A DNA stretch of 32,000 nt from Marinobacterium iners (GCF_017310015.1 NZ_CP022297.1:806774-838773), one strand, 5' to 3'. Positions 253 through 29,804 are shown, counted from the stretch's first letter. Notes: generated by a model from the sequence alone, not told the origin. Numbers and translations are program-made.

Positions 253-422
253 CCTGTATGTTCTGAACCACATCAATTTGTAGCTGTGAGCTGCACAGCC
301 GGCGTATCAATTTAGGAAAGTTTCTCCGCCGATGTATGTCCACCAATTTCATTTATTTAACTGCAAAGATTACTGTTTATATATACTCGGTGCACCCTGA
401 AAAGAGCGCGCCTGATAGCAGT

Positions 423-1340
423 TCAGTTTGCTTCTGCAATTCCTTCTGCTATTCTTCTTATCTCTTGGGCGAAACGAATTCTATCATCGAACTCATACCT
501 GTTTTTTTCTCCAGTTATCACAACCTGTTTTCCTTTTTCGACTACATCATATCCTACAGATGAAAGCTGTTTCGAAATAAATAAATACAAAATCGTTTGG
601 TTGTTTTCATTAAGTATGCGGCTGTAGAAAGAATCGTTATACGCCATGATTCTCTTTATTGCATCGATTAAATCAGAAGGTTGAAAAAACTTATCTTCTA
701 TTTTTTCAATAATTTCTCTTGGCGAAACTTGATCGCCTACAATATTTATATGCTGTTTGAGATATTCTAGAGCGTCATGCCTTTCATCTCTGATAAGGTT
801 AAGTGCAAAGTTTTGTATGTCCTCACTTTTGCCATAGTGCTTTTCCAGATAAAGACTGAGTATCCTTTTCATCAGCCTTCCATCTTTATCAAGATAGTTT
901 TTTTTACAGGCTACTGCCATATACCTATCTGCAAGGTTTCTGGATAACTGATTTAGTCTTTGGTGATATTCACTCATCATTGGGCAGTACTCTGTAAGTA
1001 CTTCCCACTTTTCTTGGCTTTCAAAATTGCTAGTTGTGATTGTTTTTGGAGGGGTTTCTTTTTTAGAGTGTTCAGTCTTTTCATTCTGATTCGTTGATAT
1101 CGGGTTTTCACTATTAGATTGCTGTATTGATTCTTTTTTCTTATAAAAAATAAGGCCTAAAATAAAAGCAATAGGGCTAAAAATAACTAATCCACCAATA
1201 AATCTTAAAATGGCCATTGCAAACTCGCCTGAAAAATCAGGACCATTAATTGCGTAAAGTACTTTAAAAAAATTATAAGCAAAATATAAAAAGTTTATTG
1301 TCCAAACATATCTAAATCCATTTTTAGTTCTTTCACTCAT
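423..1340 (-). CDS. Two-TM membrane protein of unknown function with a soluble C-terminal domain (possible abortive-infection-type cargo)
   Basis: 305-aa ORF. The N-terminal ~65 aa hold two hydrophobic segments (INFLYFAYNFFKVLYAI and AILRFIGGLVIFSPIAFILGLIFY). A polar linker and a ~200-aa domain follow, with no motif I recognise. The gene is conspicuously AT-rich compared with all its neighbours. Confidence 0.65.
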   Translation of the reverse strand: MSERTKNGFRYVWTINFLYFAYNFFKVLYAINGPDFSGEFAMAILRFIGGLVIFSPIAFILGLIFYKKKESIQQSNSENPISTNQNEKTEHSKKETPPKTITTSNFESQEKWEVLTEYCPMMSEYHQRLNQLSRNLADRYMAVACKKNYLDKDGRLMKRILSLYLEKHYGKSEDIQNFALNLIRDERHDALEYLKQHINIVGDQVSPREIIEKIEDKFFQPSDLIDAIKRIMAYNDSFYSRILNENNQTILYLFISKQLSSVGYDVVEKGKQVVITGEKNRYEFDDRIRFAQEIRRIAEGIAEAN

Positions 1341-1393
1341 TTTAAGTCCCTCTTTATAAAATATAGTGCCATGCGAGTGTATTCTTTATAACT

Positions 1394-2668
1394 TCAGATA
1401 TTAAAATCCTTCTCCACCAGCCGCCCAGTCGTATTATCCATCCGATACCGGATAATGCTGCCGTCTATAATACGCTTCACGACTTCCCGTGCGGTATCCA
1501 GCTCTACATCGAACCACTCACGGGGGCGATAGGTGCCACCGTCACGGCTGTGCAGTGTCACGTTCACTCGCTGGTTATGTAGCATGGCATGGATCAGTCG
1601 TTCAAAGCGGTGCGGGTCCAGGTTGTAGCAGTCGAATGACGCCACCACCTTTACCGGTGCTTCAAGGTAGGTCTGCTGGCGCTCGGCACCGGCCAGACGC
1701 TTGTCCAAGTCCTTTTCGGTGTAGCCTATTTTGTGCAGGTGCCGTACCTGCCGCAATACCGGGTCATGGCTCAGCGAGCGCAGAATATAGATGATGCCGG
1801 TTTGCTGGTCTTTGTGGGTCAGTCCTGCAAGGCCATTCAGGGCTTTATCCTGCTGCAGGATGCGGCGACCGGTTTCGTCCTTGTACAGTGCCCGAGCCAG
1901 CGAGCGCAATAGCAGGTTGGATTCAGTCCCGTTGTCGAATACTACGCGCAGCCTAGGGTTAAACTTGGTGCCGGCGCCTACACTTTCCTTGCCGACCTGA
2001 TCGGCGATACAGATCATGCCATTGAGGATGAACATATCGCCTTCATCAATCTGCGACTCTTTTTTGAAGGGTACGGTTTCAGCACCGCCGTTGCGTATGG
2101 CGTCACGGACTTCATCAAACAGGCGCTCGAAGCGGTAGAAGTCGTCACAGACTGTGCGCTTGGCAATCTCGTCCGGGCGCTCCTTTTCTTCAGCCTCGCT
2201 CACATGCGCCATATCAAAGATGGATTCAGCTTCAGCATCCACTGACAGCAGGCCCAAGGGGTCGCTCTCGAGTATGTCATCCAGTGAACTTACATCGTCT
2301 AACCCGGCTGCTTCAGTCACGCAGGCAGGCGGGTGTGTGCCAATCTGTCCGTCAGTGTCTGTGCTGGCGCTCAATAACCTGAGACTGTCATGTTGCGCCA
2401 GTCTGTCCAGGTGTTCAGGATTGGCTCTGATGGCGGCCAAGCGCACGGCTAGGGTGGCTTCCTGCAAATCTTCAGCGTCTTGGTCAGGCTCCCGCCCGTT
2501 TTCACTCACAAATACTTCAACAGCCTTAAAACCACTCAAAAGGCGCTCATCCGCCGTGGGTGCTGATGCCCGTGAAGCCGTTACATTGAGCAGGCCCAAG
2601 GGATCATCACCGGAAAAAATATCATCCAAGGTGCGCCTGGCCGGTCGCTCACGGCGGGTGCGAATCAT
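1394..2668 (-). CDS. T5orf172 / MUG113 (GIY-YIG-like) domain protein, putative nuclease
   Basis: 424-aa ORF. The C-terminal ~110 aa (GIIYILRSL...LHKIGYTEKDLDKRL...PHRFERLIHAMLHNQRV...PREWFDVELDTAREVV) fit the T5orf172 pattern as I know it. The N-terminal half is acidic and low-complexity with two LDDI-x-DPLGLL-V motifs. The start overlaps the helicase stop by 4 bp (2665-2668). Confidence 0.8.
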   Translation of the reverse strand: MIRTRRERPARRTLDDIFSGDDPLGLLNVTASRASAPTADERLLSGFKAVEVFVSENGREPDQDAEDLQEATLAVRLAAIRANPEHLDRLAQHDSLRLLSASTDTDGQIGTHPPACVTEAAGLDDVSSLDDILESDPLGLLSVDAEAESIFDMAHVSEAEEKERPDEIAKRTVCDDFYRFERLFDEVRDAIRNGGAETVPFKKESQIDEGDMFILNGMICIADQVGKESVGAGTKFNPRLRVVFDNGTESNLLLRSLARALYKDETGRRILQQDKALNGLAGLTHKDQQTGIIYILRSLSHDPVLRQVRHLHKIGYTEKDLDKRLAGAERQQTYLEAPVKVVASFDCYNLDPHRFERLIHAMLHNQRVNVTLHSRDGGTYRPREWFDVELDTAREVVKRIIDGSIIRYRMDNTTGRLVEKDFNI

Positions 2669-4746
2669 GCGGTGGCTCCTTTCATCCGCTCACGTTTCTT
2701 CTGTTGAATATAGGCCAATGCTTCGGCATAGCGTACTTCCATTTGATCGTCACTGGTCACGGAAGGTGGTCGGCCCTTCTGCTGAACAAAGGCATTGATG
2801 CGGGGCCAGAGAATCACCGCTTCCTCTTCAGTCATCTGGGTACGCTTGCTGACAACGACATCCTGAATGGTCTTGAGTACCGGTGCGGTCAGCGCCTTGG
2901 ACAGAATCTCGTAGGCGCCCTGGAAGGGGTTGATCTGATTGATAAGGTCGATGTTCAAGTGTTCAATGTTGACGAACTTGTCACCTATTTTGAGGAACTG
3001 ACGTCCGCCACCAGCACTGCCGGTATCGATGTTATCTTCATCAGCCGATTCACCTGGTCGCTGATCGGGATTGACGGCTTCACCGGCGGGCTGCGTGTCG
3101 TAGCGACCGTCTGGTTCCAATATCTGTGCGCCGTCTGGCAAGTCCTCTTCATTGAACAGGCCACCGGTGGCGCGTGCCTGCATAGTGGTCAGTACGGTTT
3201 CACGCAGCAGTTCCCGTTCGCCTTCATCTAAATCAGGGTGCAGTCGCTCTATGACCTTGGGTATCTCGGTCTGATTAATCACTTCAGGTTCAGTGGACTC
3301 AGTGACGGCCGCAGCGGCTACTTTGGGTTCCTGCAACAGGGCGGCAATAATGTCCTCCTGCCCACCGGACTGCAGAATATCCATCACCTTTTGAGAAACC
3401 GGTGCGGCCGTGTCTTCGATTACGACTGTGCCTGGCTCAACCGTTTCGTCGGGCTTCATACGAGAGCGGGGCTTGAAGTTGATGCTGGGCGCCAGCACTT
3501 GTTCCATCAGCAGGGAAACAGTAATCGCCTTGAGCAGGTTGTTGACGCTGTTCTGCACGTCTTCATCTTCGGCATCAGGCTGGGCGATCAGGTTGGTGAA
3601 TTGAGCGTGTGTTTTACCTTCGCTGTCACGTGTTGCACGGCCGATGATCTGGATAATCTCGGTCATCGAGTTGCGGTAGCCGATGGTCAGCACATGCTCA
3701 CAGTAGGGCCAGTCAAACCCCTCTTTGGCCATGCCCAGGGCGATAATCACATCCACATCATCCCGATGGTTTACTTGGCGCAGGTATTCCTGAATGTGGG
3801 TGCGGACAAGGGTATCCGTTACCAGGTCGGCAACCTTCAGCAGGCGACCAGATGAGTGACGTACAGTGATAATGCCTGTTTTGGCATCCTGATCTTCGAC
3901 CTTGCCCAGCGCATCCAGAATGTAATCCACTTCACTGTACTTATCAGTGGTGCTCTCGCCGCTGTTGCGATGGGGAATGTGAACAATGGTTTTGCGTTCC
4001 GGGTCCAGCACTTCATGGATGGCATCCAGATAGCTGCCCTGATAGAAGTGATAGCCGATCCCCAATGACTTCAGGTAACGGTAGCCATTGAGCTGTTCAT
4101 AGTAGGTATAGGTCACTTTATCGAACAGGGCTTCATCGTCCGGCAGCAGGATAGGGGCTGCATCACCTCGGAAGTAAGAGCCGGTCATGGCAATAATATG
4201 GGCGCTGGATGATCGTATCAGGTCATCAATCAGGGCGCCCAGCCGGTTGTTTTCGTCAGCGGACACATGATGGAATTCATCAATCGCCACCAGACAGTCG
4301 TTGAAGTCGACAGGGGTGAGTTTGTCGAAGGCAAAGCGCAGGGTCGCGTGAGTGCAGACCAGTGTCTTGGCAGCGGGGTCTTTCATAAAAGCACGGAAAG
4401 CGTCTACCTTGCCGCTGTCATTGCCGGCACGGCAAAGGTCATGCCGGCTTTCAACGTGCCAATCCCATTCAAAGCCATGTGTGGTAAGGTCGGTGTCCTT
4501 GAAGCTGGCGCCGATGGATTTTTCCGGCACGGCAACAATCACCTTGCGTAGCCCCTGGCGATTCAGCTTGTGCAACGCCAGGAACATCAGCGCCCGTGAT
4601 TTACCTGATGCCGGTGGTGCCTTGATCAGCAGGTACTGGCTGTCTCGCTTGGCATAGGCGCGGGCCTGCATCTCCCGCATTCCTTGTGCGTTACTGCTGG
4701 CGCTTTTACCGTTGCGTGCGTACTCGACCTTGATCAACTCGGCCAT
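2665..4746 (-). CDS. SF2 DEAD/DEAH-box (ResIII-like) helicase with a long acidic C-terminal extension
   Basis: 693-aa ORF. Walker A is APPASGKSRA, motif II is DEFHH, motif III-like is MTGS, and motif VI is QIIGRATRD. The last ~240 aa are not helicase-like: acidic and low-complexity, then a conserved-looking helical tail. Confidence 0.9.
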   Translation of the reverse strand: MAELIKVEYARNGKSASSNAQGMREMQARAYAKRDSQYLLIKAPPASGKSRALMFLALHKLNRQGLRKVIVAVPEKSIGASFKDTDLTTHGFEWDWHVESRHDLCRAGNDSGKVDAFRAFMKDPAAKTLVCTHATLRFAFDKLTPVDFNDCLVAIDEFHHVSADENNRLGALIDDLIRSSSAHIIAMTGSYFRGDAAPILLPDDEALFDKVTYTYYEQLNGYRYLKSLGIGYHFYQGSYLDAIHEVLDPERKTIVHIPHRNSGESTTDKYSEVDYILDALGKVEDQDAKTGIITVRHSSGRLLKVADLVTDTLVRTHIQEYLRQVNHRDDVDVIIALGMAKEGFDWPYCEHVLTIGYRNSMTEIIQIIGRATRDSEGKTHAQFTNLIAQPDAEDEDVQNSVNNLLKAITVSLLMEQVLAPSINFKPRSRMKPDETVEPGTVVIEDTAAPVSQKVMDILQSGGQEDIIAALLQEPKVAAAAVTESTEPEVINQTEIPKVIERLHPDLDEGERELLRETVLTTMQARATGGLFNEEDLPDGAQILEPDGRYDTQPAGEAVNPDQRPGESADEDNIDTGSAGGGRQFLKIGDKFVNIEHLNIDLINQINPFQGAYEILSKALTAPVLKTIQDVVVSKRTQMTEEEAVILWPRINAFVQQKGRPPSVTSDDQMEVRYAEALAYIQQKKRERMKGATA

Positions 4747-4775
4747 TGTTCAGCCCTCCCTGGTTCAGTGTTTGG

Positions 4776-5084
4776 TTAGTGTGATGCCGCCTGTGTCAGG
4801 TCGTGGAAGTGGATTCCGGTCGCTCGCATTACGGCCGTCATGGTACGCAGTGTGGGGTTACCCTTAGGTGACAGGGCACGGTACAGGCTTTCCCGAGACA
4901 CCTTGGCCCGTTCAGCAATTACGGTCATGCCGCCCTGTGCCTCAACCACATGGCGCAGGGCGATCAGAAAGGCAGATTCGCCGCCTTCTTCGTCCAGTTC
5001 GTCAAACGCTGCACGCAGGTACTCAACCGCCATGTTGGGGTCGGAACGCAGCATCTCGATTACAGCATCGTCATGGTTTTTCAT
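4776..5084 (-). CDS. HTH antitoxin (addiction-module antidote protein, HigA-like; TIGR02684-like from memory)
   Basis: 102 aa. LRAAFDELDEEGGESAFLIALRHVVEAQGGMTVIAERAKVSRESLYRALSPKGNPTLRT is the typical antidote-protein HTH. There is a 4-bp ATGA overlap with the upstream toxin gene. Confidence 0.85.
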   Translation of the reverse strand: MKNHDDAVIEMLRSDPNMAVEYLRAAFDELDEEGGESAFLIALRHVVEAQGGMTVIAERAKVSRESLYRALSPKGNPTLRTMTAVMRATGIHFHDLTQAASH

Positions 5085-5422
5085 GATTCTATTCTCTCTC
5101 GATAATCCGCCAGAAACGCTTTAGCCTGGGTGATATCCTGCTGTTGGCGTTTTTTGCTGCCACCAATCAGCAGTAACACCCGGCGTTCGCCAATATCGGC
5201 GTAATACACTCGATAGCCGGGGCCATAGGTAATACGCAGCTCCATCACGCCTTCACCAACGGCTTTGGTATCGCCGGCATTGCCCAGCGCCAGTCGGTTG
5301 AGGCGGGTCAGCACGCGCATGGCCGCCTGAATATCCTTTTTCTTGGTGGCATCGAGCCATGCCTGAAAAGGGTCATGGCCATCGCTGGTCAGGTAGTGCT
5401 TTAGCTCAATCATATCAATCAT
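5081..5422 (-). CDS. RelE/ParE-superfamily toxin (addiction-module killer protein; TIGR02683-like from memory)
   Basis: 113 aa. FQAWLDATKKKDIQAAMRVLTRLNRLALGNAGDTKAVGEGVMELRITYGPGYRVYY is the characteristic killer-protein core. The gene is paired with the antitoxin just downstream. Confidence 0.85.
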   Translation of the reverse strand: MIDMIELKHYLTSDGHDPFQAWLDATKKKDIQAAMRVLTRLNRLALGNAGDTKAVGEGVMELRITYGPGYRVYYADIGERRVLLLIGGSKKRQQQDITQAKAFLADYRERIES

Positions 5423-5465
5423 TGTAGCTTGAAAGCTACGTCAGTGCCTATGCAGGTGAGGCTAT

Positions 5466-8210
5466 TCAGTCGCTGGATGTGCGCCGCCTTGCGCGGGTCT
5501 TGGCGTTACGCTGTTCCGCTTCAATTAAAGCTTCATAGCGTGCCAGCAAGAACTCCTGCCGCTCGGCCGTATCACGGAAAGGGCGCTCTCGGTACAGGTG
5601 CTCTACTGCACGGTCGAGTGCCTGGTGTGCCTGCAGTAGATCGTCCGGCATTTTGTCGGGATCGTACATCTGCGCCAGCGTTTTGTCAGGGTGCGCACCA
5701 CGGGCGAGGATTATCTGCCTGCCCAACTTTTCAATGGCGCTGCGCTGGGTATTGCTGGCGTCAGGCCAAGGGAAGGTGTTGTAAACCAGCGTGGCCGAAT
5801 AGCGGTAGTCGCTTTTGAGCCGGCCGCCGACCAGCCGCAACCAGTCCATGTGCATCTGGGTGGACAAGATTGCTAACTCGTAGAGAGTGCCATTGGGGAT
5901 GGTTTGTACGAGGTCAGTGACTATTGTTGTTCCATCAAAAATGCCTACAGGGCTGTAAACCCTTCTCTCTGAGGTAACACGGGGAACGAGGATAAAGGTG
6001 TCTGGATTATTAATATCACGGAACTGGTGTGGTCTTTCAGCCAGTTTATGGGCGCCAGCATCGCGGCTGGCAAGGCGCATCTCCTTGACATCTTCAACAC
6101 GCTTTTTCACCAGAGGCATGGCGTCAATGTCGGATTGGTCTGCACCCACTAACCATAGACACCAGCGCTCTTTGCCCTGCAGAAACTCTTGGGCACCAAG
6201 GAGTTGTCTGATCCACTTCGCGGCTTCAGGCTCAGTCAGCAACAACTGATTTTTTTCCTCTGTAGAAAGAATCAGGTGTCCGCCATCAAGTGGCTTATTG
6301 CCATAAACCATAGCTGCACAGGGTAATAACGGATGGCGGCGACTGCCCACTACAACGTTACCAGCTTCAAGCAGGTATGGACTGATATTAACAACCTCCC
6401 GCAGACGCCACTGGCTATCCAACTGCTGATAAAGGCGCTTGGACTCAGGTTTGGAACAAAGGCCAATGATCACCACATGAACACCGGCATTGCCTTGGGC
6501 GCTGTTCTTCCAACTGAAGGTTTGGTACGCAAAGGCTATCTGAACCTGCAGATCCAGTATGGCTGGCCAGAGCATGGCCACCTGCTCGCCCTGGCAGATT
6601 GAGTTGGTTGCCACCAAGGCGATTTGACCGCGTTGGCGGATATACTGTGCGCCTTTCCAGAAAAAGCTTGCCACATAATCCAGATAACGGTGTTTCTTGA
6701 ACCCGGCAAATACCAGATCCATATCGGCGTTTTGTACTGCAGAGCGATAGGTGGCCCCTCGGAATGGTGGATTGCCGCATACAAACACCTCGGCCTCGCC
6801 ATCATTCGGGCATACCGCATTCCAGTCCATACGCAGGCTGTTACCCAGTACCAGATGGCCGTAGTCCTTCAAGGGCAGCAGAGGTTCCGCATGGCCGAAC
6901 TCCTTGGCAAACAGGGTATTCATCTGGTGCTCAGCCAGCCATAACGAAAGCTGTGCGATCTCATGGGCTGCGTCATCAATTTCGATGCCGTAGAACTGGC
7001 TCAGACGGATACCGCTCATGAAGAACTCATTTTGCTGCATCTGCATTGCGTTCTTCAGGTTGACGGCCTGCAGCTCACGTAAAACCGCCATCTCCAATCG
7101 GCGCAGCTCCTTGTAGGCGATGATCAGAAAGTTGCCTGATCCCATTGCCGGGTCGAATACCCGAATTCGGGTCAGACGCCCCAGCAGGGATTCCAGTTTC
7201 TTGCGCTGGCCTTTGGCGCTGTCCAGGCTGGCATAGAGGTCATCCAGAAACAGTGGTCGTATCACCTTCATGATGTTGGGCACGGAGGTATAGTGCTGGC
7301 CCAGGCTGTCACGACTTTCCTCATCCACAACCGCTTGGAACATCGAGCCGAAGATATCCGGGTTTACTGCTTCCCAGTTGAGCTGGCCGCACTCGATCAT
7401 CATGCGCCGTGCTCTGGCGCCAATGGTGGGCATTGGCAGGTCATCGCTGAACAGGCCGCCATTAACGTATGGGAACTGGCTGATGTGCGCCGGCAGGTCG
7501 GCAGGGCGGTCTGACTCAGGCTGGTTCATAATTGTGAATAGCTGCGCCAGCAAGGCTGGCAGGTCGTCGCCGCTGTCGCTGCTGGCCTCAGTGATTACAC
7601 GCGTGAAGGCGCCAGATTTGAAAATGCCGGTGTCTTCGGCGAAGTAGCAGAACAGCAGACGAGTCAGAAAAACGTTGAGCGCATGGCGCTGTTCAGTGGT
7701 TTCAAAGGCATTGTGTTCCTTGAGGCGATCAAACAACCGGCCCATCTTGGCGGCTGCCTTGAGGTCCGCTGATGCCTCCTCAAAGTGCTTGGTGCGCTCC
7801 AGCCCCGCCATTGGTGCAAAGAACAGGTACTGAGTGGCCAGCTTGTCGAAGTCCACCTCGAGCCGTTCATCTGTGCGGGTATCCAGAGCCGTGATTTCAC
7901 GGTGGTCCGTGACCAACAGAAAGCGGCATTTGTGCCGGCGTGGTTCGTCATCGTCGGCGAGTGCCTGTTGGGCTTCATGGATGCTTTCACCATCACGCAC
8001 CGGCATGAAGTACAGCCAATTCTTCAGCGCCACATGGCCGTCTTCCTTACGAGATGCCACATTGCGCTGCCCATTGTTGCGCACCTGGGTGATCGTTGCT
8101 TTGGGGAAACCGTAAGCGTCAAGAAAGGCGAATATGAACTCACCGGGATCAGCGCCTGCAGCGGTGGCAGCCGTGAGGGTGTTCATACAGTAGGTCTGGT
8201 CGAAAGCCAT
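5466..8210 (-). CDS. MmeI-family (type IIL/IIG, PglX-like) gamma-class N6-adenine DNA methyltransferase with target-recognition domain; N-terminal nuclease motif apparently not conserved
   Basis: The ORF is open to 8300. I prefer the Met at 8210 (MAFDQ...) or 8186 (MNTLT...). SAM motif is FDPAMGSGNFLI and the catalytic NPPF lies at 6762-6773. Long blocks are collinear with MmeI as I remember it (LTRLLFCYFAEDTGIF, FPYVNGGLF, IFGSMFQ...LGQHYTS, YRYSATLVYNTFPWP, MYDPDKMPDDLLQAHQALDRAV). Confidence 0.9.
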   Translation of the reverse strand: MAFDQTYCMNTLTAATAAGADPGEFIFAFLDAYGFPKATITQVRNNGQRNVASRKEDGHVALKNWLYFMPVRDGESIHEAQQALADDDEPRRHKCRFLLVTDHREITALDTRTDERLEVDFDKLATQYLFFAPMAGLERTKHFEEASADLKAAAKMGRLFDRLKEHNAFETTEQRHALNVFLTRLLFCYFAEDTGIFKSGAFTRVITEASSDSGDDLPALLAQLFTIMNQPESDRPADLPAHISQFPYVNGGLFSDDLPMPTIGARARRMMIECGQLNWEAVNPDIFGSMFQAVVDEESRDSLGQHYTSVPNIMKVIRPLFLDDLYASLDSAKGQRKKLESLLGRLTRIRVFDPAMGSGNFLIIAYKELRRLEMAVLRELQAVNLKNAMQMQQNEFFMSGIRLSQFYGIEIDDAAHEIAQLSLWLAEHQMNTLFAKEFGHAEPLLPLKDYGHLVLGNSLRMDWNAVCPNDGEAEVFVCGNPPFRGATYRSAVQNADMDLVFAGFKKHRYLDYVASFFWKGAQYIRQRGQIALVATNSICQGEQVAMLWPAILDLQVQIAFAYQTFSWKNSAQGNAGVHVVIIGLCSKPESKRLYQQLDSQWRLREVVNISPYLLEAGNVVVGSRRHPLLPCAAMVYGNKPLDGGHLILSTEEKNQLLLTEPEAAKWIRQLLGAQEFLQGKERWCLWLVGADQSDIDAMPLVKKRVEDVKEMRLASRDAGAHKLAERPHQFRDINNPDTFILVPRVTSERRVYSPVGIFDGTTIVTDLVQTIPNGTLYELAILSTQMHMDWLRLVGGRLKSDYRYSATLVYNTFPWPDASNTQRSAIEKLGRQIILARGAHPDKTLAQMYDPDKMPDDLLQAHQALDRAVEHLYRERPFRDTAERQEFLLARYEALIEAEQRNAKTRARRRTSSD

Positions 8211-8517
8211 GAAGCGTGCGTCCTGCGTGTAGCGTATATATGACAGACAACTATAGCCGCTTGGGCAGAGAGGGGGTAGGGGTGGTGCCATCCTTGGCAC
8301 CGTAATCAGTGCAGTCTTGTCCTCAGCCAGGTGTTGGCAGCAAAGCGACCTGCATTGTCACGCTGGCGCTTTGTGCCGGTGGTGAATGTCATAAGCGGCC
8401 ACCAATGCTTATGCCCGTCTTGTGACACTAGTCAGTCAGATATTAACCAGCTCGGTGTATTTGAACGCTTCCTGAAGCGGTTGCATCTGTAGTGGCCTGA
8501 TCGTCTTGCGCGTAGGG

Positions 8518-8595
8518 GTGTTTCCTTCGCTGGTAACAGTGTTTCCTTCGTGCGCGTGAGCCTGTTAACTTCGGTGTTAACCACTACCTGTTAAC
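8518..8595. repeat. Two families of short direct repeats: GTGTTTCCTTCG x2 and TGTTAAC x3
   Basis: GTGTTTCCTTCG occurs at 8518-8529 and 8539-8550 (21-bp spacing). TGTTAAC occurs at 8563, 8575 and 8589 (12- and 14-bp spacing). Confidence 0.8.
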
Positions 8596-8602
8596 GCTGC
8601 GG

Positions 8603-8785
8603 TGCGCACCTGAATGCGTACCAATTTTGTGCGCACTTCCCTGCGTACCTTGGTGCGTACCTTGCCCGGTTGGTTTGCACTCTACTGCGAACCTGAAGCC
8701 GCGAACCTCAATGCGAACCTTGCTCGCTGTGCCGGTCGGTACGAACTCCAATTCGTACCAAACTTGTTCGAACCTCTGTTCGTAC
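8603..8785. repeat. Iteron-like phased array of about 13 octamers, T(G/T)CGNAC(C)
   Basis: Copies start at 8603, 8615, 8630, 8642, 8654, (8675 degenerate), 8686, 8700, 8712, (8739), 8752, 8767 and 8779. Spacing is mostly 11-15 bp. The core drifts along the array from GCGCAC/GCGTAC to GCGAAC to TCGTAC/TCGAAC. Confidence 0.8.
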
Positions 8786-8947
8786 TTTCAGCCCTTATCG
8801 TTTTCGCTGGGGCCACAACCTTTCGATAGCTGGCGCTGATCTGTACTCGACCAGCCTTCGGATTGTTCATCCTCCATTGGAGGTTAGGGTCAGCAGGGTG
8901 GACGTTTTGTCCACCCCTCGATCATGGTTGGAGTCGGTCAAGCTGTC

Positions 8948-9066
8948 GGTGGGGTGTCACGTTTCGTTACCCCCTTCGAGGTCTGGTGTCGTGCTTTGCG
9001 ACTCCAGCCTGAATCTACCCAATATCGGGATCGTTCGATGGGGTATCGCATTTCGCTACCCCCTTC
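8948..9066. repeat. Pair of ~30-bp direct repeats, TGGGGT-TC-C-TTTCG-TACCCCCTTCG
   Basis: 8948-8977 (tggggtgtcacgtttcgttacccccttcg) and 9037-9066 (tggggtatcgcatttcgctacccccttcg) lie 89 bp apart. A degenerate third copy sits near 9105-9125. Confidence 0.7.
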
Positions 9067-9726
9067 GTTGCCTGATCCAGCGCCAGCAGGTCGATAGCGG
9101 GATTCCGCTACCGGGGCAGCCATTACGGGGCGGGCAACAGCTCCGGCGGTCAACGGTGCGCCAGTGGGTACGATTCAGCGCCAGCGAATTACAGGTTGAT
9201 AGCTAATAACAATGACGATTCTTGCAACCTGATTTCAGGCATGGTTTTTGATATACCCTGTTCGCCTCGCTATACGGTTGCATTGCCCTGCAACAATCAA
9301 GTAATAAGCAAAAGCCGTGCCCATGATATTTTTCTATCAATGTGCCGGTCGCCTGCAACGCTCAGTATTGTTCATGGCAGGTATGGCTGTGGTGATTGGT
9401 GCGAGCCTTTCATTCTGGCCCTGTGCGGTGCGTTCGTCTTTGATCCATGCGCCAGCATACCCGCAACAGAACGGCGCTCTGGTCGCTTCCTGATACCGCT
9501 CCCCATTGGTGGTTAGGCATTTGGTAACTCCCTGCGGCGTAGGAGGTTAATCGGCTGCTGAATGATGGCCTGATTAACTTCCCCCATTGGGGGGAGTTGG
9601 TATGCGCAAGCATCTACGCTCCCGAAATATCGGTAACGTCCTCAATCTGAGGAAGTTGGTTCCGGGCTTTTACCCCATTGGGGGGGAAAGGCACTGCTGA
9701 ATAATCAGCAGTCGAGATCGGCAGCA

Positions 9727-10307: not shown

Positions 10308-11246
10308 ATGTTCAGCAGGGATAGAGCAATGGGCGCACTGGTTGGGTTAGCGGTTGGTGACGCTCTGGGCGCACCGGTGGAGTTCTGCCAAAGGGGGCGT
10401 TTTACTCCGGTCACTACCATGGCAGCAGGTGGCAAGTTCAAGATGAGCCTGGGTGAATGGACCGATGATACCGCCATGGCTCTGTGTTTGGCTGATAGCC
10501 TGATTGAATGCCGTGGCTTTGATGCTCGAGACCAGATGGAACGGTATTGGCGCTGGGGTAACGAAGGCTACAACTCGACCCGTGAAAGAGCCTTTGGCGT
10601 TGGCAAGACGGTGGCCAAGGCCATGAGCCGATACCGGCGTACCGGTGATCCTTTTGCGGGCTCTGATGATCCTTTGTCGGCAGGGAATGGATCCATCATG
10701 CGTCTGGCTCCGGTCGTTCTGTACTACCTTTCCCGGCCAGATGAGGCAACCCGTTTTGCTGCTGAGTCTTCACGAACAACACACCAGGCAGAGGAGTCGA
10801 TACAAGCCTGTCAGCTGATGGCGCATGTGATGTGTAAGGCGATTCACGGCGCAGAAGAAAAGGCCGAGCTGTTTCAAAACGCTTCCCACTTGGGCTGCTC
10901 TGGGCTGATTACTGGCATTGCAAACCGGTCATACCTCGATAAGCAGGAAGGCCAGATTCAAGGCAGCGGGTATGTTGTGGAGTCCTTGGAGGCGGCACTC
11001 TGGTGCTTTGAAACTACGGACAGTTTCCATGATGCGGTGCTGAAAGCAGTGAACCTGGGGGATGATGCCGATACTACTGGCGCTGTATGCGGGCAGATAG
11101 CTGGCGCTTATTACGGCTTTGACTCAATACCACCAGAGTGGGTTGGCGATCTCATGGAAGGACAGAGAATCATTGAAGCAGCAGAGTCTCTAATCAATCA
11201 GGGAATGGAAGTTATCCAGCCCAGTGACCACAAGGGCAGCATTTGA
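10308..11246 (+). CDS. ADP-ribosylglycohydrolase (ARH/DraG family)
   Basis: 312 aa. Family hallmarks are present: ALVGLAVGDALGAPVEF, WTDDTAMALCLADSL, GNGSIMRLAPV and GDDADTTGAVCGQIAGAYYG. An AGAGG-like RBS precedes the ATG. Confidence 0.9.
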   Translation: MFSRDRAMGALVGLAVGDALGAPVEFCQRGRFTPVTTMAAGGKFKMSLGEWTDDTAMALCLADSLIECRGFDARDQMERYWRWGNEGYNSTRERAFGVGKTVAKAMSRYRRTGDPFAGSDDPLSAGNGSIMRLAPVVLYYLSRPDEATRFAAESSRTTHQAEESIQACQLMAHVMCKAIHGAEEKAELFQNASHLGCSGLITGIANRSYLDKQEGQIQGSGYVVESLEAALWCFETTDSFHDAVLKAVNLGDDADTTGAVCGQIAGAYYGFDSIPPEWVGDLMEGQRIIEAAESLINQGMEVIQPSDHKGSI

Positions 11247-12539: not shown

Positions 12540-12941
12540 TTAGTGCAGCCGCGTCCGCAGCCACGTGTTAGCAGCAAACCGTCCTGCATTGTCACGCTGG
12601 TACGATTTCAACTCAGGTGCGCCAGCAGTGGCCAGCCAGTGCGCCCGGTACTCTGTCAGCAACGCCTGCCTTTCATGCTCTGATCGGTACTGAATCAGTC
12701 CATCGATCCAAACCTGATCGTCCCATAGCAGGGGCAGATCAAGATCAGCCGCGCAGTACAGCATCATGCTTGTGTCGTTGGCAGCAGGGATGCCGCGCAG
12801 CTCATCCAGTAGTTGCTGCTTGTGTCGAGATAGCCAGTTGAGTTGATCCGGTGATAGCGGCTCCGGTGCCTGTACCTGCAAGTTATCGCCATCGGCTTGC
12901 AGGATCAGTCCGCGTTGAGCCAGGGTGTCAATCATGCTCAT
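12540..12941 (-). CDS. Hypothetical protein with a TubC-N-like docking motif, typical neighbour of P4-type primase/helicase genes
   Basis: 133 aa. The N-terminus LAQRGLILQADGDNLQVQAPEPLSPDQLNWLSRHKQQLLDEL resembles the short N-terminal domain seen next to satellite and island replication genes. It begins 10 bp after the upstream gene's stop. Confidence 0.55.
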   Translation of the reverse strand: MSMIDTLAQRGLILQADGDNLQVQAPEPLSPDQLNWLSRHKQQLLDELRGIPAANDTSMMLYCAADLDLPLLWDDQVWIDGLIQYRSEHERQALLTEYRAHWLATAGAPELKSYQRDNAGRFAANTWLRTRLH

Positions 12942-12951
12942 CTGCCAGACC

Positions 12952-14523
12952 TCACAGGGTATACTTTGCGGACTGAAGTCCTGAATGTCCTATGTCCTGC
13001 TGTTTTACCTCCTCATGCCAGGACTTAGGACTTGCAGGACTTTGATCCGGTAACTTTACCTTGATACACCAGTGGACAGCCCCGCCTATCTTGCCCATTG
13101 AGTCACACTCAATATCGAGCTGGCGCAGTGCAGGTGCTGATCGGCGCAGCGCATCGCCCAACCCCTTTGCAGACTTCGGCCAGGAATCGCAACGCTCAGG
13201 CCGGTACTGCTCCAGGATGCGCATGATCTCCTTCACCGGGGCGTTGATCTCTTTGCGGTGTTCCAGTGCCTCGATAATCGCGGTGCAGACGGGACTGCTG
13301 TCTATGGTGCGGGATATGCTTTCACGGCGGTTGCCTTTGAACAGATCGAGAAATAGCCTTTCGTCCTGGTGGCTGATCCGAGTGAGTGCCATCCCAAGGG
13401 CGCAATACTCGATCATCCGTGGCCGGTCGGCTGCATCAATCGAGATAGTCGGCAGCAGCGCCAGAGCAGCACTTGCCAGGTCAAACAGTCCACTCAGTAT
13501 GGCCGGAAGGTCGCGCTCGAAATCGGCCCACTGGTCAGCCGAAGCGGTGCGGCTCTTAATCACGGGACACTCAATGCAAACCGTCCGGTCGAGCAAATCC
13601 TGTGCCGTAACCAATGCGCTGATCCCATTCACCAGCCAGGGGCGTTGAACGCTGATAACACTCTCATCTGCATCCGAGTACAGCTTGCGCTTGGCGAACC
13701 CGCCCCCGGTAGACAGCACGCACATGGCATCCTGCATCGGCCCGGTTAGGTGGCTCAGGTTTTCGTATGCAACCAAGTGGTTGACGCCTGCACAAACAAA
13801 CACATCTTCGGTGGCCTTGGGTGCGCCTCGCAGATTGCAGCCGTTCGGGTCGATCAGTCGGCGCAGTGACTCGGACGCAGTGCTTTTGCCTGATCCTTGC
13901 TCACCGATAAGCTCCAGTCCGGGGAAGGGGGTATCCGGTCGCAGTGCATCGATCAGCCAAGCAATCACCAGTGGCCGGTCGGCAGCAGGGATATTACAGA
14001 TACGCCATAACGGGTCGAGCGAGCCGTTTGCAGCAGGGACTGGCAGCGGCTGCATTGCCTCACCACGCACAAACAGGACGCCATGATTCTCAACCACGCG
14101 CCAGCCGGTACTGCTCCACTCAATCGCCCGACTTTTGCCTGGTTCACATAGGTCCAGGTAGTAGCGGCCACCCTGTTTGGCAACTCTCAGGTTAACGGTG
14201 CGCTCCTCACCTTCAAACCGCGCCAGGGCAGCCAAGGTGCCTAACGCTTCAGTCAAGGACTGGGACTTAACGGACTTCTGTTCTTCCTGGTAGAAGCCAG
14301 CGGCCAGCCAGTCCTTGAAGGCGCGGGAGTCAAGGCGGCGCGTTTCCTGAGTGTCCTGATCCAGTGCGTAGCAATCCCGGTTGCAGTCATGGAACAGCAC
14401 AACCCTTGCCTTGGCGTATTCAACCAAGCGGTCAGCCTGGGAGCGGCGATCCTCATCCGGTTTCTGCTGTTCCGGCACCGGCATGGCATCGATCTCTTCC
14501 AGCACATCGAGATAATCACCCAT
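12952..14523 (-). CDS. P-loop NTPase, putative replication helicase/initiator of a P4/PICI-like island
   Basis: 523 aa. Walker A is LIGEQGSGKSTA and a Walker B-like motif is LVAYENLSH. Synteny is int-alpA-ZnF primase-ATPase. The start overlaps the upstream gene by 8 bp (14516-14523). Confidence 0.7.
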   Translation of the reverse strand: MGDYLDVLEEIDAMPVPEQQKPDEDRRSQADRLVEYAKARVVLFHDCNRDCYALDQDTQETRRLDSRAFKDWLAAGFYQEEQKSVKSQSLTEALGTLAALARFEGEERTVNLRVAKQGGRYYLDLCEPGKSRAIEWSSTGWRVVENHGVLFVRGEAMQPLPVPAANGSLDPLWRICNIPAADRPLVIAWLIDALRPDTPFPGLELIGEQGSGKSTASESLRRLIDPNGCNLRGAPKATEDVFVCAGVNHLVAYENLSHLTGPMQDAMCVLSTGGGFAKRKLYSDADESVISVQRPWLVNGISALVTAQDLLDRTVCIECPVIKSRTASADQWADFERDLPAILSGLFDLASAALALLPTISIDAADRPRMIEYCALGMALTRISHQDERLFLDLFKGNRRESISRTIDSSPVCTAIIEALEHRKEINAPVKEIMRILEQYRPERCDSWPKSAKGLGDALRRSAPALRQLDIECDSMGKIGGAVHWCIKVKLPDQSPASPKSWHEEVKQQDIGHSGLQSAKYTL

Positions 14524-14974
14524 TGCGCAGCACCTCCTTGATCTTGGCTACTCGTGCAACTGCCTGCTGATAGTCGGCTTGATCCTTATCGGACAGTGCT
14601 TGTCCGGCCTTTTGAGCGTTCTCCGTCATCAGGATCAGCAGCTTCAGGTGGGACATTGCATCCTCAAGACGGCGGCGCTTCCAGTCGGGCAGTCCGGCAT
14701 AGTGCGGACGGTCGGTGCGCGGGTACAGATCGGCCACCTCAAGGCCAATGGCGGCGCAAATGTCGCTGATCTCACAACCCGCAAAACAGTGCATCAGCAC
14801 ACGGCCATCGGTGGTGTCGAAGCGGACAGACAGACTCGGGCTTTTGTCCTGGTGTGCAGGGCAACAGGCCATGTAACGATCTTTGCCGGTGGGCTTTACC
14901 CTGTCGAGCCGTCCCAGCAGATCGGCGGCGGTCAGCGGGTGACGCTGGTGTGGTTGTTTGAGCGGTGCGGTCAT
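14516..14974 (-). CDS. CHC2-type zinc-finger primase-like protein (zinc-binding domain only)
   Basis: 152 aa. KDRYMACCPAHQDKSPSLSV...HCFAGC matches the CHC2 zinc-finger pattern of DnaG/P4-alpha-type primases. I see no TOPRIM or AEP catalytic domain in this ORF. Confidence 0.7.
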   Translation of the reverse strand: MTAPLKQPHQRHPLTAADLLGRLDRVKPTGKDRYMACCPAHQDKSPSLSVRFDTTDGRVLMHCFAGCEISDICAAIGLEVADLYPRTDRPHYAGLPDWKRRRLEDAMSHLKLLILMTENAQKAGQALSDKDQADYQQAVARVAKIKEVLRNG

Positions 14975-15108
14975 CGGATCAGCCCCCAGTGAATAGCGGT
15001 CACGAAAAGGATGGTCGCGGTTTCGATAGGCCAGCCGGTCAGTGCTATAATGAGCATCTGCTTGACGGCGGCGGCCTGTGTGGTGCGGGTCGCTGCTTCC
15101 TTTCTCAT
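14971..15108 (-). CDS. Possible 45-aa small hydrophobic protein
   Basis: Hand translation gives MRKEAATRTTQAAAVKQMLIIALTGWPIETATILFVTAIHWGLIR. Its TGA (14971-14973) overlaps the downstream ATG in an ATGA junction. It is too short to appear in the ORF track, so it stays speculative. Confidence 0.3.
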   Translation of the reverse strand: MRKEAATRTTQAAAVKQMLIIALTGWPIETATILFVTAIHWGLIR

Positions 15109-15119
15109 ATCACACCCCC

Positions 15120-15347
15120 TCAGGCCACACGGCTGTCAGCAATACGCGCTTCGATCCACGCATAAATCTCGCTTGCCAGCCAACCAACACTGGTGCCATT
15201 GGGGTTCAGTTTGATGGGCTTCGGGAAGCGGTCGAGGGAAATTTCACGATAGATTGTGCTGCGGCCAAGGCCGGTCAGCTCTTCCACCTGACGGCGGCGC
15301 AGAATCTGGAGTTCACGCTGTTGCAGCATTTCGGGGGTTGCGGTCAT
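15120..15347 (-). CDS. alpA: AlpA-family transcriptional regulator / excisionase-like HTH
   Basis: LQILRRRQVEELTGLGRSTIYREISLDRFPKPIKLNPNGTSVGWLASEIYAWIEARI is a classic AlpA/MerR-like phage HTH. I prefer the Met at 15347, although the ORF is open to 15362. Confidence 0.85.
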   Translation of the reverse strand: MTATPEMLQQRELQILRRRQVEELTGLGRSTIYREISLDRFPKPIKLNPNGTSVGWLASEIYAWIEARIADSRVA

Positions 15348-15857
15348 ATTGCGTCTCCTCAACCAAAGCCATCTTGCCCCTCACGTTTGGACGCTATGGG
15401 ACAGCATGAGACCGATATGGCTACAAGCAAAGCTTGACTGAACCACAAGTTCACTGATAACTTTGGCAATGTAAGTTAGGTTACTTAACATCTCTGCCAA
15501 GCAGTTAGCGGCTGCTGTGGGGAGGAAAATCGGCTCTGAAGCGCAAGCTCCAGGGCTTTTCTTCGTCTCCTGCAAAGACTTGTTGGCATTATACATACCG
15601 ATTGGGACTGTTTTTGCTATTTTTTTTGCTGCCCATCGAACCTGTGCTTTAAGAGTGAGGTTTTCTCAACCCAATAGAGGCGTTTGGAGTCGTTTCGCGT
15701 ACTTACGGGTAGTTTTGCGCCCATGGGAATATTAGAAAGTATCAAGCTGGCACCTGCCTCTTAACGCCGCGAGACTGTCACCTGCTCATCAAATCGCGTC
15801 ATCTGAAGTGTTCGTCAGGCTGATCGGCTGCCAAAGCTGGCCCCTCGATTTAAGGGG

Positions 15858-17219
15858 TCAGCCTGCCTGTTTGCCAAAGCTGGCGCTGATTACGTTGCTG
15901 CCCTCAGGCTGAGTCAGTACCGCCAGCCGTTGGCCTAGCGTCTGCCACGCGTGTTGCATCTCAGCAGCGTAGCTGTGGCGTTGGTATGTCCGCTTAACCC
16001 GGTTTTGCTCGGCATGGTTCAAGCAGCGTTCGGCCACTTCGGGCAGAATACCGGCCTCAACCATCATCGTTGCAGCGGTGCGCCTCAGATCGTGCGGTGT
16101 CCACTTGCCGCCCGGAAGCAACAGAGCCTGGCTGCTTTTGCTGCGGCCACTCATACGGTCTTGGTCTGGCTGACGCTGTCGATCCTGAAGCTGCTTGTTA
16201 ACGGTTTTGGGACATACCGGAGCGGTGCCATTTCTGTTCGGATAACACCATTGGCCTGAACCAGTGTGCTGCTGCAACGCTCTGAACTGCTGTACTGCAA
16301 AGTCAGATAGGTAAACAGTATGCGGTTTACCATTCTTGGTGCTGGGCATGTACCAAGTGTGCTGCTCAATGTTGATATGCCCCCACTCAGCAGACAGTAG
16401 CTCTCCAATTCGACAGCCGGTGGATAGAGCGATCCATACAGCCAGCTCGGTTGTTGGCATCAGCCCAGCGTCTGGCATCTGTTTTACCAGTAAGCGAACT
16501 TCCTCCTCCGACAGTACCCGGTCACGCTCCATGTTTTTGCCACCAATGTTGGCTTTGGCAATGGCAGCGGTAGGGTCAGCCTCGATAATTTCACGCACCA
16601 CAGCAAAGCGGAACATCTGCCGCATTTCGGACAGAGCTACCTTTGCCATACGGGGCGCACCCCTTGCCATGATTGAGTCTGTGATTTGGGTAACATGGCT
16701 GCGGCGAATATCCTCGGCTGCAAGCTGGCCTATCTTTGGCAGCACGTCAATCGTAAACAGGCGTAGGGTACTTTCACCTCGGTCTTTTCTGCGGATCAGA
16801 TCAACCTTCATCCAGTGTTTAAACAGATCGTTGATCGTCATGCGGCTACGGTGAAGCTGGTTCTCTCTTTCCAGACGGATGCGCTCGGCTTCCTCCCTTG
16901 CCTGCCTGTGCTGTTCCTCCGCTTCAAGGTGTTCACGCAGATTGGTAATGCCGCTCTGGTGTAGACCGGCAAGCTCTTTGGCCCTGAGTCTGGCTTGTGT
17001 CAATGTCAGGCAGCCCAACTTCTCCTCTCGGCTGTAATTGCCGATAGGCATCGTTACCCGCTTGCCCTGGCTATCGATATACCGGAAGTAGAAAATGCGC
17101 TCGCCTTTGGGGGTGATCCTCACAGTCAGGGCGCCATGACCTCTGATAACGCTCTCACTCAGCCACCGGCTTCCTGTGCCGGGTTTCGCATTGATCTGAC
17201 GGTCAGTAATTGAAGCCAT
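15858..17219 (-). CDS. int: Tyrosine recombinase, P4-type integrase (DUF4102-like N-terminal arm-binding domain)
   Basis: 453 aa. The N-terminus is LSESVIRGHGALTVRITPKGERIFYFRY. Catalytic-domain motifs are CRIGELLS, HDLRRTAATMM and LNHAEQNRVKRTYQRHSY. Confidence 0.9.
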   Translation of the reverse strand: MASITDRQINAKPGTGSRWLSESVIRGHGALTVRITPKGERIFYFRYIDSQGKRVTMPIGNYSREEKLGCLTLTQARLRAKELAGLHQSGITNLREHLEAEEQHRQAREEAERIRLERENQLHRSRMTINDLFKHWMKVDLIRRKDRGESTLRLFTIDVLPKIGQLAAEDIRRSHVTQITDSIMARGAPRMAKVALSEMRQMFRFAVVREIIEADPTAAIAKANIGGKNMERDRVLSEEEVRLLVKQMPDAGLMPTTELAVWIALSTGCRIGELLSAEWGHINIEQHTWYMPSTKNGKPHTVYLSDFAVQQFRALQQHTGSGQWCYPNRNGTAPVCPKTVNKQLQDRQRQPDQDRMSGRSKSSQALLLPGGKWTPHDLRRTAATMMVEAGILPEVAERCLNHAEQNRVKRTYQRHSYAAEMQHAWQTLGQRLAVLTQPEGSNVISASFGKQAG

Positions 17220-17239
17220 GTTGTACCCATCCCAAAGCT

Positions 17240-17260
17240 GGTTGCCATTCGGTTGCCATT
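17240..17260. repeat. Direct repeat GGTTGCCATT x2 (11-bp period) just upstream of the P4-type int start
   Basis: Copies at 17240-17249 and 17251-17260, 21-41 bp upstream of the int ATG at 17219. Candidate operator or arm-type site. Confidence 0.5.
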
Positions 17261-17388
17261 TGAGATTAGCTTAGCTAGGTACGAATGGGAACGATAAGGA
17301 CGAGGAGTTTTTAATAATGCTTTAGTTTCAGATAGTTACGTATGTTCGGTGGAATGGCTTGGATTTGCTGGGAATGGTTTTTTCTTTT

Positions 17389-17433
17389 ATGGGGTGCAAG
17401 GGGTAGCAGGTTCAAATCCTGCCGTCCCGACCA
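17389..17433 (+). other. 3' half of a tRNA-Pro(GGG) gene (anticodon loop to CCA): att-site remnant, not a complete tRNA
   Basis: The sequence atggggt gcaag gggta gcagg ttcaaat cctgc cgtcccg a cca parses as follows: anticodon loop (U33, GGG, G37), 3' anticodon stem, 5-nt variable loop, T arm (GCAGG/TTCAAAT/CCTGC), 3' acceptor strand, discriminator A, CCA. Upstream there is no D arm and no CGGGACG 5' acceptor strand. Confidence 0.65.
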
Positions 17434-17479
17434 TTTATTTGATTTATTTTCAATAGGTTAGCAGCATTCAGTGTGGGAT

Positions 17480-17498
17480 TTGTCCCATCATTGTCCCA
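17480..17498. repeat. Direct repeat TTGTCCCA x2 (11-bp period) between the tRNA fragment and the 3' end of the second integrase gene
   Basis: Copies at 17480-17487 and 17491-17498, with an inverted TGGGA at 17474-17478. Candidate integrase-binding sites of the right-hand element. Confidence 0.45.
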
Positions 17499-17512
17499 CA
17501 GCCTTATATTTG

Positions 17513-23798: not shown

Positions 23799-23868
23799 AT
23801 ACCAACAAATTTGTTTGCAACACAATGATACCCGGGTCTGTTCATAATACGGAGCTGATGGTAACGAG

Positions 23869-25191: not shown

Positions 25192-25291
25192 TCATTAACG
25201 CTATCGAGTTGGTTTAATGAGCTGATTTGATGATTAGGATAAAGACTTTAAAAGCGGTAAAAGCCGCAGCAATATTACAGGGAGCAATGGC

Positions 25292-26560: not shown

Positions 26561-26562
26561 CC

Positions 26563-29759: not shown

Positions 29760-29804
29760 TCAACAGCTACCCAGTATTACACAGTCTTACATAAGGATAT
29801 AAAC

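Follow-up and report, generated by a model that had tools for sequence, protein, structure and literature searches.

The locus considered here raises the question of whether a DNA methylase of the MmeI family, apparently without a nuclease of its own, can operate with separately encoded partners as a split restriction-modification system. It occupies positions 1394-8210 of a 32,000-nucleotide stretch of the Marinobacterium iners genome (GCF_017310015.1, NZ_CP022297.1:806774-838773), referred to below as the window. Five genes lie there on the minus strand, encoding (in the order of reading) an MmeI-family methylase (5466-8210, 914 aa), a RelE/ParE-superfamily toxin (5081-5422, 113 aa), a helix-turn-helix antitoxin (4776-5084, 102 aa), a superfamily 2 (SF2) helicase (2665-4746, 693 aa) and a T5orf172 protein (1394-2668, 424 aa). 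Reading of the sequence confirmed the co-directional arrangement given in the initial annotation, with junctions of +43, -4, +29 and -4 bp; the toxin/antitoxin junction is an ATGA with a 4-bp overlap, and the start of the T5orf172 gene overlaps the helicase stop codon, likewise by 4 bp. The methylase reading frame is open up to a GTG at 8300, and the ATG at 8210 is the start common to its homologs, which begin with MAFDQTYCM. A promoter/terminator scan returned fewer sites than shuffled sequences did and none in the intergenic gaps, a result that fits one operon without proving one.

As detailed below, the locus is, close to certainly, a YeeA(DnmA)-YeeB-YeeC cluster. Its methylase, helicase and T5orf172 protein probably form a working ATP-dependent restriction-modification system of three components, comparable in kind to Type I and type ISP enzymes. 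The initial annotation had assigned modification and recognition to the methylase, and translocation and cleavage to the helicase and the GIY-YIG-like protein. Split ATP-dependent restriction of this kind is still the best reading, because a methylase of the MmeI family devoid of PD-ExK is tightly linked to a helicase and a T5orf172 gene, and it coincides with a proposal made by Morgan et al. 2009 (PMC2731913).

Methylase and its N-terminal domain

The methylase matches the Pfam families MmeI_N (1.5e-20), MmeI_hel, MmeI_Mtase (4.9e-98), MmeI_TRD (3e-76) and MmeI_C, and it aligns end to end with the PADLOC model REase_MTase_IIG (PDLC03598, 3e-301). Both previously noted motifs are in place, the SAM-binding motif I (DPAMGSGNF) at 7128-7154 and NPPF at 6762-6773. 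By its sequence the protein is classified as a gamma-class N6-adenine DNA methyltransferase of the MmeI family, YeeA/DnmA type, with a fused target-recognition domain. Its closest named relative is from Marinobacterium weihaiense (82% identity by BLASTP, 83% in the codon alignment), and one of its homologs (P0066) is named "DNA methylase subunit YeeA" by NCBI.

A phmmer alignment of the methylase to MmeI (PDB 5hr4, 6.9e-190) covers query residues 120-925 and begins at MmeI residue 103, therefore missing the catalytic region. A profile made from nine diverse methylase N-termini was aligned to MmeI residues 28-248 (E = 1.8e-32), and in this alignment D70, E80 and K82, the putative catalytic residues of MmeI according to Morgan et al. 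2009, stand opposite A61, M69 and V71 (numbered in the 914-aa methylase). The suspicion, originally based on comparison by eye, that none of the three catalytic positions is conserved was thus upheld. The register of a MAFFT alignment is two residues off relative to that of the hidden Markov model (HMM) and places H59, a non-acidic residue, opposite D70, with the triad still absent; we prefer the HMM register and report both. An intact PD-ExK motif in the methylase is excluded in either register, and an N-terminus without D...ExK is common to all 120 closest methylase homologs (down to 52% identity).

The domain homologous to the MmeI nuclease domain comprises residues 1-135 (7806-8210, minus strand). 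Its AlphaFold2 model has a mean predicted local distance difference test score (pLDDT) of 79.7, with residues 10-130 above 90 and a compact alpha/beta topology. A Foldseek search of this model against the PDB gave only weak, aminoacyl-tRNA-synthetase-like matches (E of 4e-3 or higher, template-modelling score ∼0.2); as no match was significant, retention of a PD-(D/E)xK nuclease fold is not supported from structure.

A full-length MmeI-family architecture and the end-to-end match to a type IIG model are what one would expect of an ordinary stand-alone type IIL (MmeI-like) enzyme whose neighbours are unrelated to it. The catalytic triad, however, is replaced by A/M/V, the partner genes are always present (see below), and two members of the family, YeeA and MslORFHP, had no endonuclease activity when expressed (Morgan et al. 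2009). Absence of a catalytic PD-ExK in the same chain refutes this explanation, to which we assign virtually no probability. The methylase, helical spacer, recognition and C-terminal domains are homologous to those of MmeI, the N-terminal domain is so at the profile level, and modification of one strand by N6-methyladenine (m6A) is likely here too. On the other hand, MmeI acts alone and without ATP, whereas the present clade always comes with helicase and nuclease partners and has lost the D70/E80/K82 residues.

Conserved linkage of the three genes

A scan of 185,579 species-representative genomes with a helicase profile detected at least 589 loci. The linkage of the genes was assessed in 131 loci, consisting of the best 80 genome loci and 51 IMG/VR loci, which were checked only for the methylase-helicase-T5orf172 trio and for inserts at the methylase-helicase junction. 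The best 80 loci span Proteobacteria, Bacteroidota, Firmicutes, Actinomycetota, Planctomycetota, Chlamydiae, Spirochaetota and bacteria of the candidate phyla radiation. A T5orf172 gene was found directly 3' of the full-length helicase gene in all loci with downstream room (116/116, with an approximate gap of -50 to +109 nt), and an MmeI-like methylase gene upstream on the same strand in all loci with at least 6 kb of flank (79/79). The helicase-T5orf172 junction was never interrupted among the 131 loci sampled. The T5orf172 gene is absent from three viral-collection loci with truncated helicases, which look decayed.

This co-occurrence check substantiates the association of the methylase with the helicase and the T5orf172 protein. 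Because of the 116/116 and 79/79 linkage, the helicase/T5orf172 pair never stands apart from the methylase in the sampled family, and its independence of MmeI-like genes is ruled out there. The trio is very widespread. For example, among Firmicutes it is found in Bacillus mediterraneensis (L014), Clostridium (L038 and L049) and Streptococcus mitis (L062), with helicases 50-52% identical to that of the window. In Escherichia coli ECCHD184 its members are annotated as a class I SAM-dependent DNA methyltransferase, a DEAD/DEAH box helicase and a GIY-YIG nuclease family protein, and the helicase gene is matched in about 101 of 5,426 complete E. coli genomes. At the nucleotide level, megablast of the 6.9-kb region found no usable match among E. 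coli genomes and plasmids. By the PADLOC models, the methylase would be reported as a type IIG enzyme encoded by a single gene; the helicase and the T5orf172 protein receive only weak, partial matches from the PADLOC HMMs.

In the initial annotation the combination was not assigned to any named system. In fact, Morgan et al. 2009 had already described both the cluster and the idea of its mechanism, and these were taken up again in 2020-2023. The 2009 study distinguished two sets of MmeI homologs, one with PD-ExK and without consistent neighbours, the other without the motif, different in the first 100 residues and "invariably" located beside a DEAD helicase (YeeB) and a GIY-YIG protein (YeeC). 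Its authors speculated that in the second set the methylase provides specificity and modification while the helicase and the nuclease cut, in a split, Type I-like manner. The window locus displays the features of this second set: a methylase that is MmeI-like beyond the first ∼100 residues and has no PD-ExK, a DEAD-type SF2 helicase downstream on the same strand, and a GIY-YIG/T5orf172 gene right after it. The Bacillus subtilis DnmA-YeeB-YeeC locus has the same gene order with the same kinds of proteins, resides in horizontally acquired DNA and has toxin-antitoxin genes nearby; it differs in that the toxin-antitoxin pair of the window sits between the methylase and helicase genes, and in that no restriction was seen with the B. 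subtilis system. The yeeA and yeeB genes of Vibrio crassostreae belong to the same family and likewise lie in a strain-specific genomic region of a gammaproteobacterium, although no embedded toxin-antitoxin pair has been reported there. Conserved synteny of the trio was confirmed by Fernandez et al. 2023 (PMC9973331). Our survey of the 2021-2026 literature found no newer name for the trio and no mechanistic study of it.

Helicase and T5orf172 protein

The helicase matches the Pfam families DEAD, ResIII and Helicase_C. Its motif I (APPASGKS, 4597-4620), motif II (DEFHH, 4267-4281) and motif VI (QIIGRATRD, 3625-3651) are invariant among the aligned relatives, and the C-terminal domain is conserved as well. 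It is 65% identical to a Vibrio cholerae helicase, and the proteins of this locus fall in the proteobacterial group of the family. The T5orf172 protein is matched in its C-terminal domain by T5orf172 (1e-16) and MUG113 (2.2e-18). Its GIY-YIG-type residues (G291, Y294, K313-I-G315, R324, E356, H360 and E384-W-F386) show conservation of at least 90% among 72 orthologs from many phyla, which RefSeq labels as GIY-YIG nuclease family proteins. For the T5orf172 protein, AlphaFold2 gave a model of middling quality (pLDDT 68) whose Foldseek matches carried no meaning. Neither the helicase profile nor the T5orf172 protein retrieved anything useful from the PDB by sequence, leaving the helicase without a close solved structure, and Pfam searches (E up to 10) with the helicase C-terminus and with the N-terminal and middle regions of the T5orf172 protein returned nothing credible.

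The two proteins share a motif of ∼40 residues (F..F....GR.P......E..LA..L), located at residues 646-685 of the helicase (2689-2808) and 46-85 of the T5orf172 protein (2414-2533); hhalign comparison of the helicase C-terminus with the T5orf172 N-terminus gave a probability of 70% with E = 4e-5. A DPLGLL motif occurs twice in the T5orf172 protein (residues 21-27 and 135-141), conserved at both positions. Both the shared motif and the DPLGLL repeats might serve for docking to a common partner. Distant relatives of the helicase core (P0449, P0466, P0479 and P0503, 900-1250 aa long) are 31-36% identical to it over residues ∼20-430, and C-terminal INT_rpt (PF14882) repeats replace the YeeB C-terminal domain in them.

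Selection and turnover of the recognition region

Purifying selection acts on all five genes, with a ratio of nonsynonymous to synonymous substitution rates (dN/dS) of 0.02-0.20 in comparison with two relatives. Relative to M. weihaiense, the helicase is 97% identical (dN/dS 0.06), the T5orf172 protein 94% (dN/dS 0.13) and the toxin-antitoxin pair 99%, while the methylase is only 83% identical. The divergence of the methylase is concentrated in residues 451-800 (5811-6860, minus strand), covering the C-terminal part of the methyltransferase domain and the target-recognition domain. This region is 42-78% identical, as against 90-100% in the other 50-aa windows over residues 1-900. The methylase homolog P0002 shows a similar mosaic pattern. 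Such a mosaic recognition region fits a role in defence, as swapped specificity between otherwise near-identical loci would be expected under pressure from phages and not from a housekeeping epigenetic regulator.

These observations bear on the main rival explanation, according to which the methylase is an orphan that regulates gene expression epigenetically, with the helicase and T5orf172 genes surviving as relics of a dead restriction system. The published work on B. subtilis speaks for it and weighs against a working restriction system. Nye et al. 2020 (PMC7261158) established that B. subtilis YeeA (DnmA) makes m6A at GACGAG and observed no restriction of plasmid transformation by the trio. 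DnmA also has effects on gene expression. Fernandez et al. 2023 reported that deletion of yeeB or yeeC had no effect on three Bacillus phages and that phage genomes do not avoid the DnmA site; they regard the locus as a relic whose methylase is an orphan. Several further points count against a working restriction system. The literature yielded no demonstrated complex, ATP-dependent translocation or cleavage for any member of the family, nuclease activity of its T5orf172 proteins is predicted from motif conservation, the linkage counts come from a best-matching, non-random sample of loci, and the B. subtilis proteins were compared with ours by description, not by alignment.

Relics would hardly be expected to look like the genes of the window, with the helicase and T5orf172 protein kept 97% and 94% identical to their M. 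weihaiense counterparts at low dN/dS, the catalytic motifs intact and conserved across phyla, the trio held together in every locus where it could be assessed, and the recognition domain swapped between near-identical loci. In addition, a defence phenotype is on record in Vibrio: gene inactivation in V. crassostreae 7F1_18 traced resistance against one phage subclade to yeeAB (Piel et al., bioRxiv 10.1101/2021.05.05.442762). Moreover, B. subtilis YeeB and YeeC are without stretches present in the Vibrio proteins (Fernandez et al. 2023). We therefore regard an orphan methylase with dead partners as unlikely at this locus, and a working three-component restriction-modification system as the probable explanation.

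Proposed mechanism and comparison with other multi-gene systems

In the mechanism that we propose for this system, the methylase would recognise an asymmetric site and methylate one adenine in it, as MmeI and DnmA (GACGAG) do. At unmodified sites, its degenerate N-terminal domain would recruit or license the helicase, which would translocate DNA at the expense of ATP and deliver the GIY-YIG nuclease for cleavage. Every step beyond methylation by the methylase is one that we infer. With functions split in this way, deletion of the methylase would not be expected to be lethal.

The nearest working analogy is probably offered by the type ISP enzymes LlaGI and LlaBIII (PMC2790903, PMC3553950), in which recognition of the site triggers translocation powered by ATP and then cleavage at a distance from it. 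They combine a nuclease, an SF2 helicase, a gamma-class adenine methylase and a recognition domain. However, they do so in one chain whose nuclease is of the Mrr (PD-ExK) type, an architecture that excludes the window locus from type ISP, as it has three separate open reading frames (ORFs) and a GIY-YIG-type T5orf172 domain. Type I systems (HsdM/S/R) resemble the locus in keeping modification and recognition apart from motor and nuclease, in accepting cargo at the junction between them, and in restriction that is expected to depend on the methylase. In contrast to them, there is no HsdS here, the recognition domain being fused to the methylase, and instead of a nuclease domain within HsdR there is a separate protein of GIY-YIG type. 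Matches of the helicase to the HsdR-type models of PADLOC are marginal (E = 0.0023), and classification as a type I system, with a separate HsdS and a nuclease-motor HsdR, was rejected.

The initial annotation also described the locus as BREX-like. A multi-gene epigenetic defence system of the BREX or DISARM kind, with a methylase of PglX or DrmMI type, would account for the weak and partial matches of our methylase to the respective models, which represent relatives of MmeI-type methylases; BREX PglX is itself a distant MmeI-type methylase without a nuclease and requires partner proteins. Nevertheless, the PglX models score far below their cut-offs (27.4 bits versus 500 for NF033452 and 29.3 bits versus 900 for NF033455), the DrmMI match is partial and restricted to the C-terminal half of the methylase, and the other genes have no Drm matches. 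Among the ORFs scanned, which are part of those in the window, there are no PglZ, BrxC, BrxL, BrxA, BrxB or DrmA/B/C-type matches; the earlier statement that no brx or pglZ genes are present thus holds for the Pfam-scanned ORFs. DISARM was rejected, as the set of DrmA (a DUF1998 helicase), DrmB and DrmMI was not found among the ORFs scanned. Overall, the BREX likeness was not borne out, and we consider membership in either system very improbable.

Toxin-antitoxin pair as cargo

The two small genes between the methylase and the helicase encode a type II toxin-antitoxin pair of the HI1419/HI1420 kind, recognised by both curated models and by the overlap of the gene pair. The toxin scores 109 bits against TIGR02683 (cut-off 62.85) and matches Pfam Gp49 (Gp49 / upstrm_HI1419 family), and the antitoxin scores 61.4 bits against TIGR02684 (cut-off 53.7) and matches PF21716 (dnstrm_HI1420). 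The five-gene layout is common only to the two closest relatives of the locus, M. weihaiense and a JGI contig (87% methylase identity). The pair is found in none of the other 131 family loci, and in Halomonas lysinitropha (helicase 80% identical) the methylase and helicase genes are adjacent. Conversely, toxin relatives (44-97% identical) were detected in 80 metagenome loci, none of which has a methylase, helicase or T5orf172 gene nearby. The five genes annotated as one unit do not hold together as such, since the pair is confined to a narrow lineage and its relatives occur elsewhere in unrelated contexts. The pair is a separately acquired, independent mobile module inserted as cargo and lies outside the core system; most likely, it acts as an addiction or stabilisation element.

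Insertions at this position are common in the family. In 33 of 107 loci (∼31%), co-directional genes occupying 0.15-5.4 kb lie between the methylase and helicase genes, the cargo including Schlafen AlbA_2/HATPase_c_4, RhuM, Fic, PIN, HamA with a helicase (Hachiman), YhcG/DUF1016, XisH/XisI, AAA_21 with DUF4276, and Abi_C, among others. Cargo of such kinds also occurs inside type I hsd operons. Because this junction takes cargo while the helicase-nuclease junction is never interrupted, the organisation suggests two modules, one for modification and recognition and the other serving as motor and nuclease.

One might go further and view all five genes as an integrated system, in which the toxin-antitoxin pair would be a functional arm, e.g. 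an abortive-infection back-up released when a phage inhibits the restriction complex. Such integration would agree with the position of the pair inside the operon (with gaps of 43 and 29 bp and no terminator-like site in them), with its retention, strongly constrained by purifying selection, in three loci whose synonymous divergence (dS) has reached ∼1, and with the presence of some cargo at exactly this junction in ∼31% of family loci. It is at odds with the absence of the pair from all other family loci and with the occurrence of relatives up to 97% identical away from the trio, and addiction alone would explain why the pair is retained. We consider the integrated system improbable. By analogy with PrrC, which is embedded in the EcoprrI type I operon, the methylase-helicase junction might even be a place set aside for the docking of "guard" modules, with the pair, like the RhuM, Fic, Schlafen, PIN and Hachiman cargo of other loci, wired to the system as an abortive-infection back-up that would fire when an anti-restriction protein of a phage disables the complex; this, too, we regard as improbable.

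Genomic context of the cassette

Positions 422-8496 of the window (8.1 kb) form a cassette common with M. weihaiense, as delimited by blastn of that locus (L081) against the window. The two are collinear with 89.7% nucleotide identity, and the common block runs from ∼290 bp upstream of the methylase gene through a gene for a 305-aa protein (ORF305; 423-1340, minus strand). The latter starts 53 bp downstream of the T5orf172 gene; its counterpart in M. weihaiense, 94% identical, also follows the T5orf172 gene, and it is absent from the JGI relative (L082). The N-terminal part of ORF305 contains hydrophobic segments, and the protein has no noteworthy match in Pfam, PADLOC or NCBIfam; the first 1000 positions are the lowest-GC stretch of the window (0.40, with surroundings of about 54%). 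Its membership in the system is doubtful; it is possibly an accessory gene or separate cargo.

The system is carried as cargo on an integrase-bearing island. An integrase gene and replication-type genes lie upstream of the cassette in both Marinobacterium genomes; since the replication genes of the two are unrelated, the cassette appears to move between islands. As in the window, the trios of M. weihaiense and E. coli ECCHD184 adjoin mobile-element genes for an integrase and/or DNA replication. The mobile-island backbone of the window (12540-18757) includes a TubC_N-like gene (12540-12941), a gene for a 523-aa protein without a family match (12952-14523), a CHC2 zinc-ribbon protein gene (14516-14974), a 45-aa ORF (14974-15108) 95.6% identical to one in M. 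weihaiense, and a tyrosine integrase gene (15858-17219), with a second integrase gene (17513-18757) beside it. No tRNA gene was found in the window, and the attachment site of the island was thus not located; no Rfam family was found in the window either.

A direct repeat of 59 nt (86% identical copies) is located at 8308-8366, just upstream of the methylase gene, and at 12542-12600, where it is the 3' end of the TubC_N-like gene. The two copies bracket 4.2 kb with an ADP-ribosylglycohydrolase gene (10308-11246), and the pair resembles the boundary of a cargo insertion that successive insertions have duplicated. Within this interval, positions 8550-9487 contain fragments resembling a 197-aa gene upstream of the M. 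weihaiense methylase gene (45% identity over 181 aligned residues plus a separate 78% piece), in what appears to be a decayed gene.

Between the second integrase gene and a set of type III-B CRISPR-Cas genes, there is a 2-kb tandem array (19386-21349) of ∼19.6 copies of a 101-nt unit with 83% matches. The unit holds a short inverted repeat (GTGTCGA...TCGACAC) and has no Rfam match; from their period and whole-unit similarity, the repeats do not look like a CRISPR array. The Cmr-type (III-B) set extends over 22080-31210. Genes for a 572-aa radical SAM protein (22080-23798) and a Cas_NE0113 protein (23869-25191) come before the Cmr genes, and these include a RAMP gene (25292-26560), Cas10/Cmr2 (26563-28584), Cmr3 (28545-29759) and more ORFs to 31210. 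No canonical CRISPR array was seen in the window.

Implications for the YeeABC family

As a discovery the locus adds little, the gene combination and its interpretation having been published already. Its value lies in what it may contribute to a family whose experimental record is divided, with no restriction in B. subtilis and phage resistance in Vibrio. The intact motifs, the strong purifying selection and the recently swapped recognition domain make the M. iners locus a reasonable candidate for testing the hypothesis of Morgan et al. 2009 that the methylase, helicase and GIY-YIG protein of this family act together in restriction.

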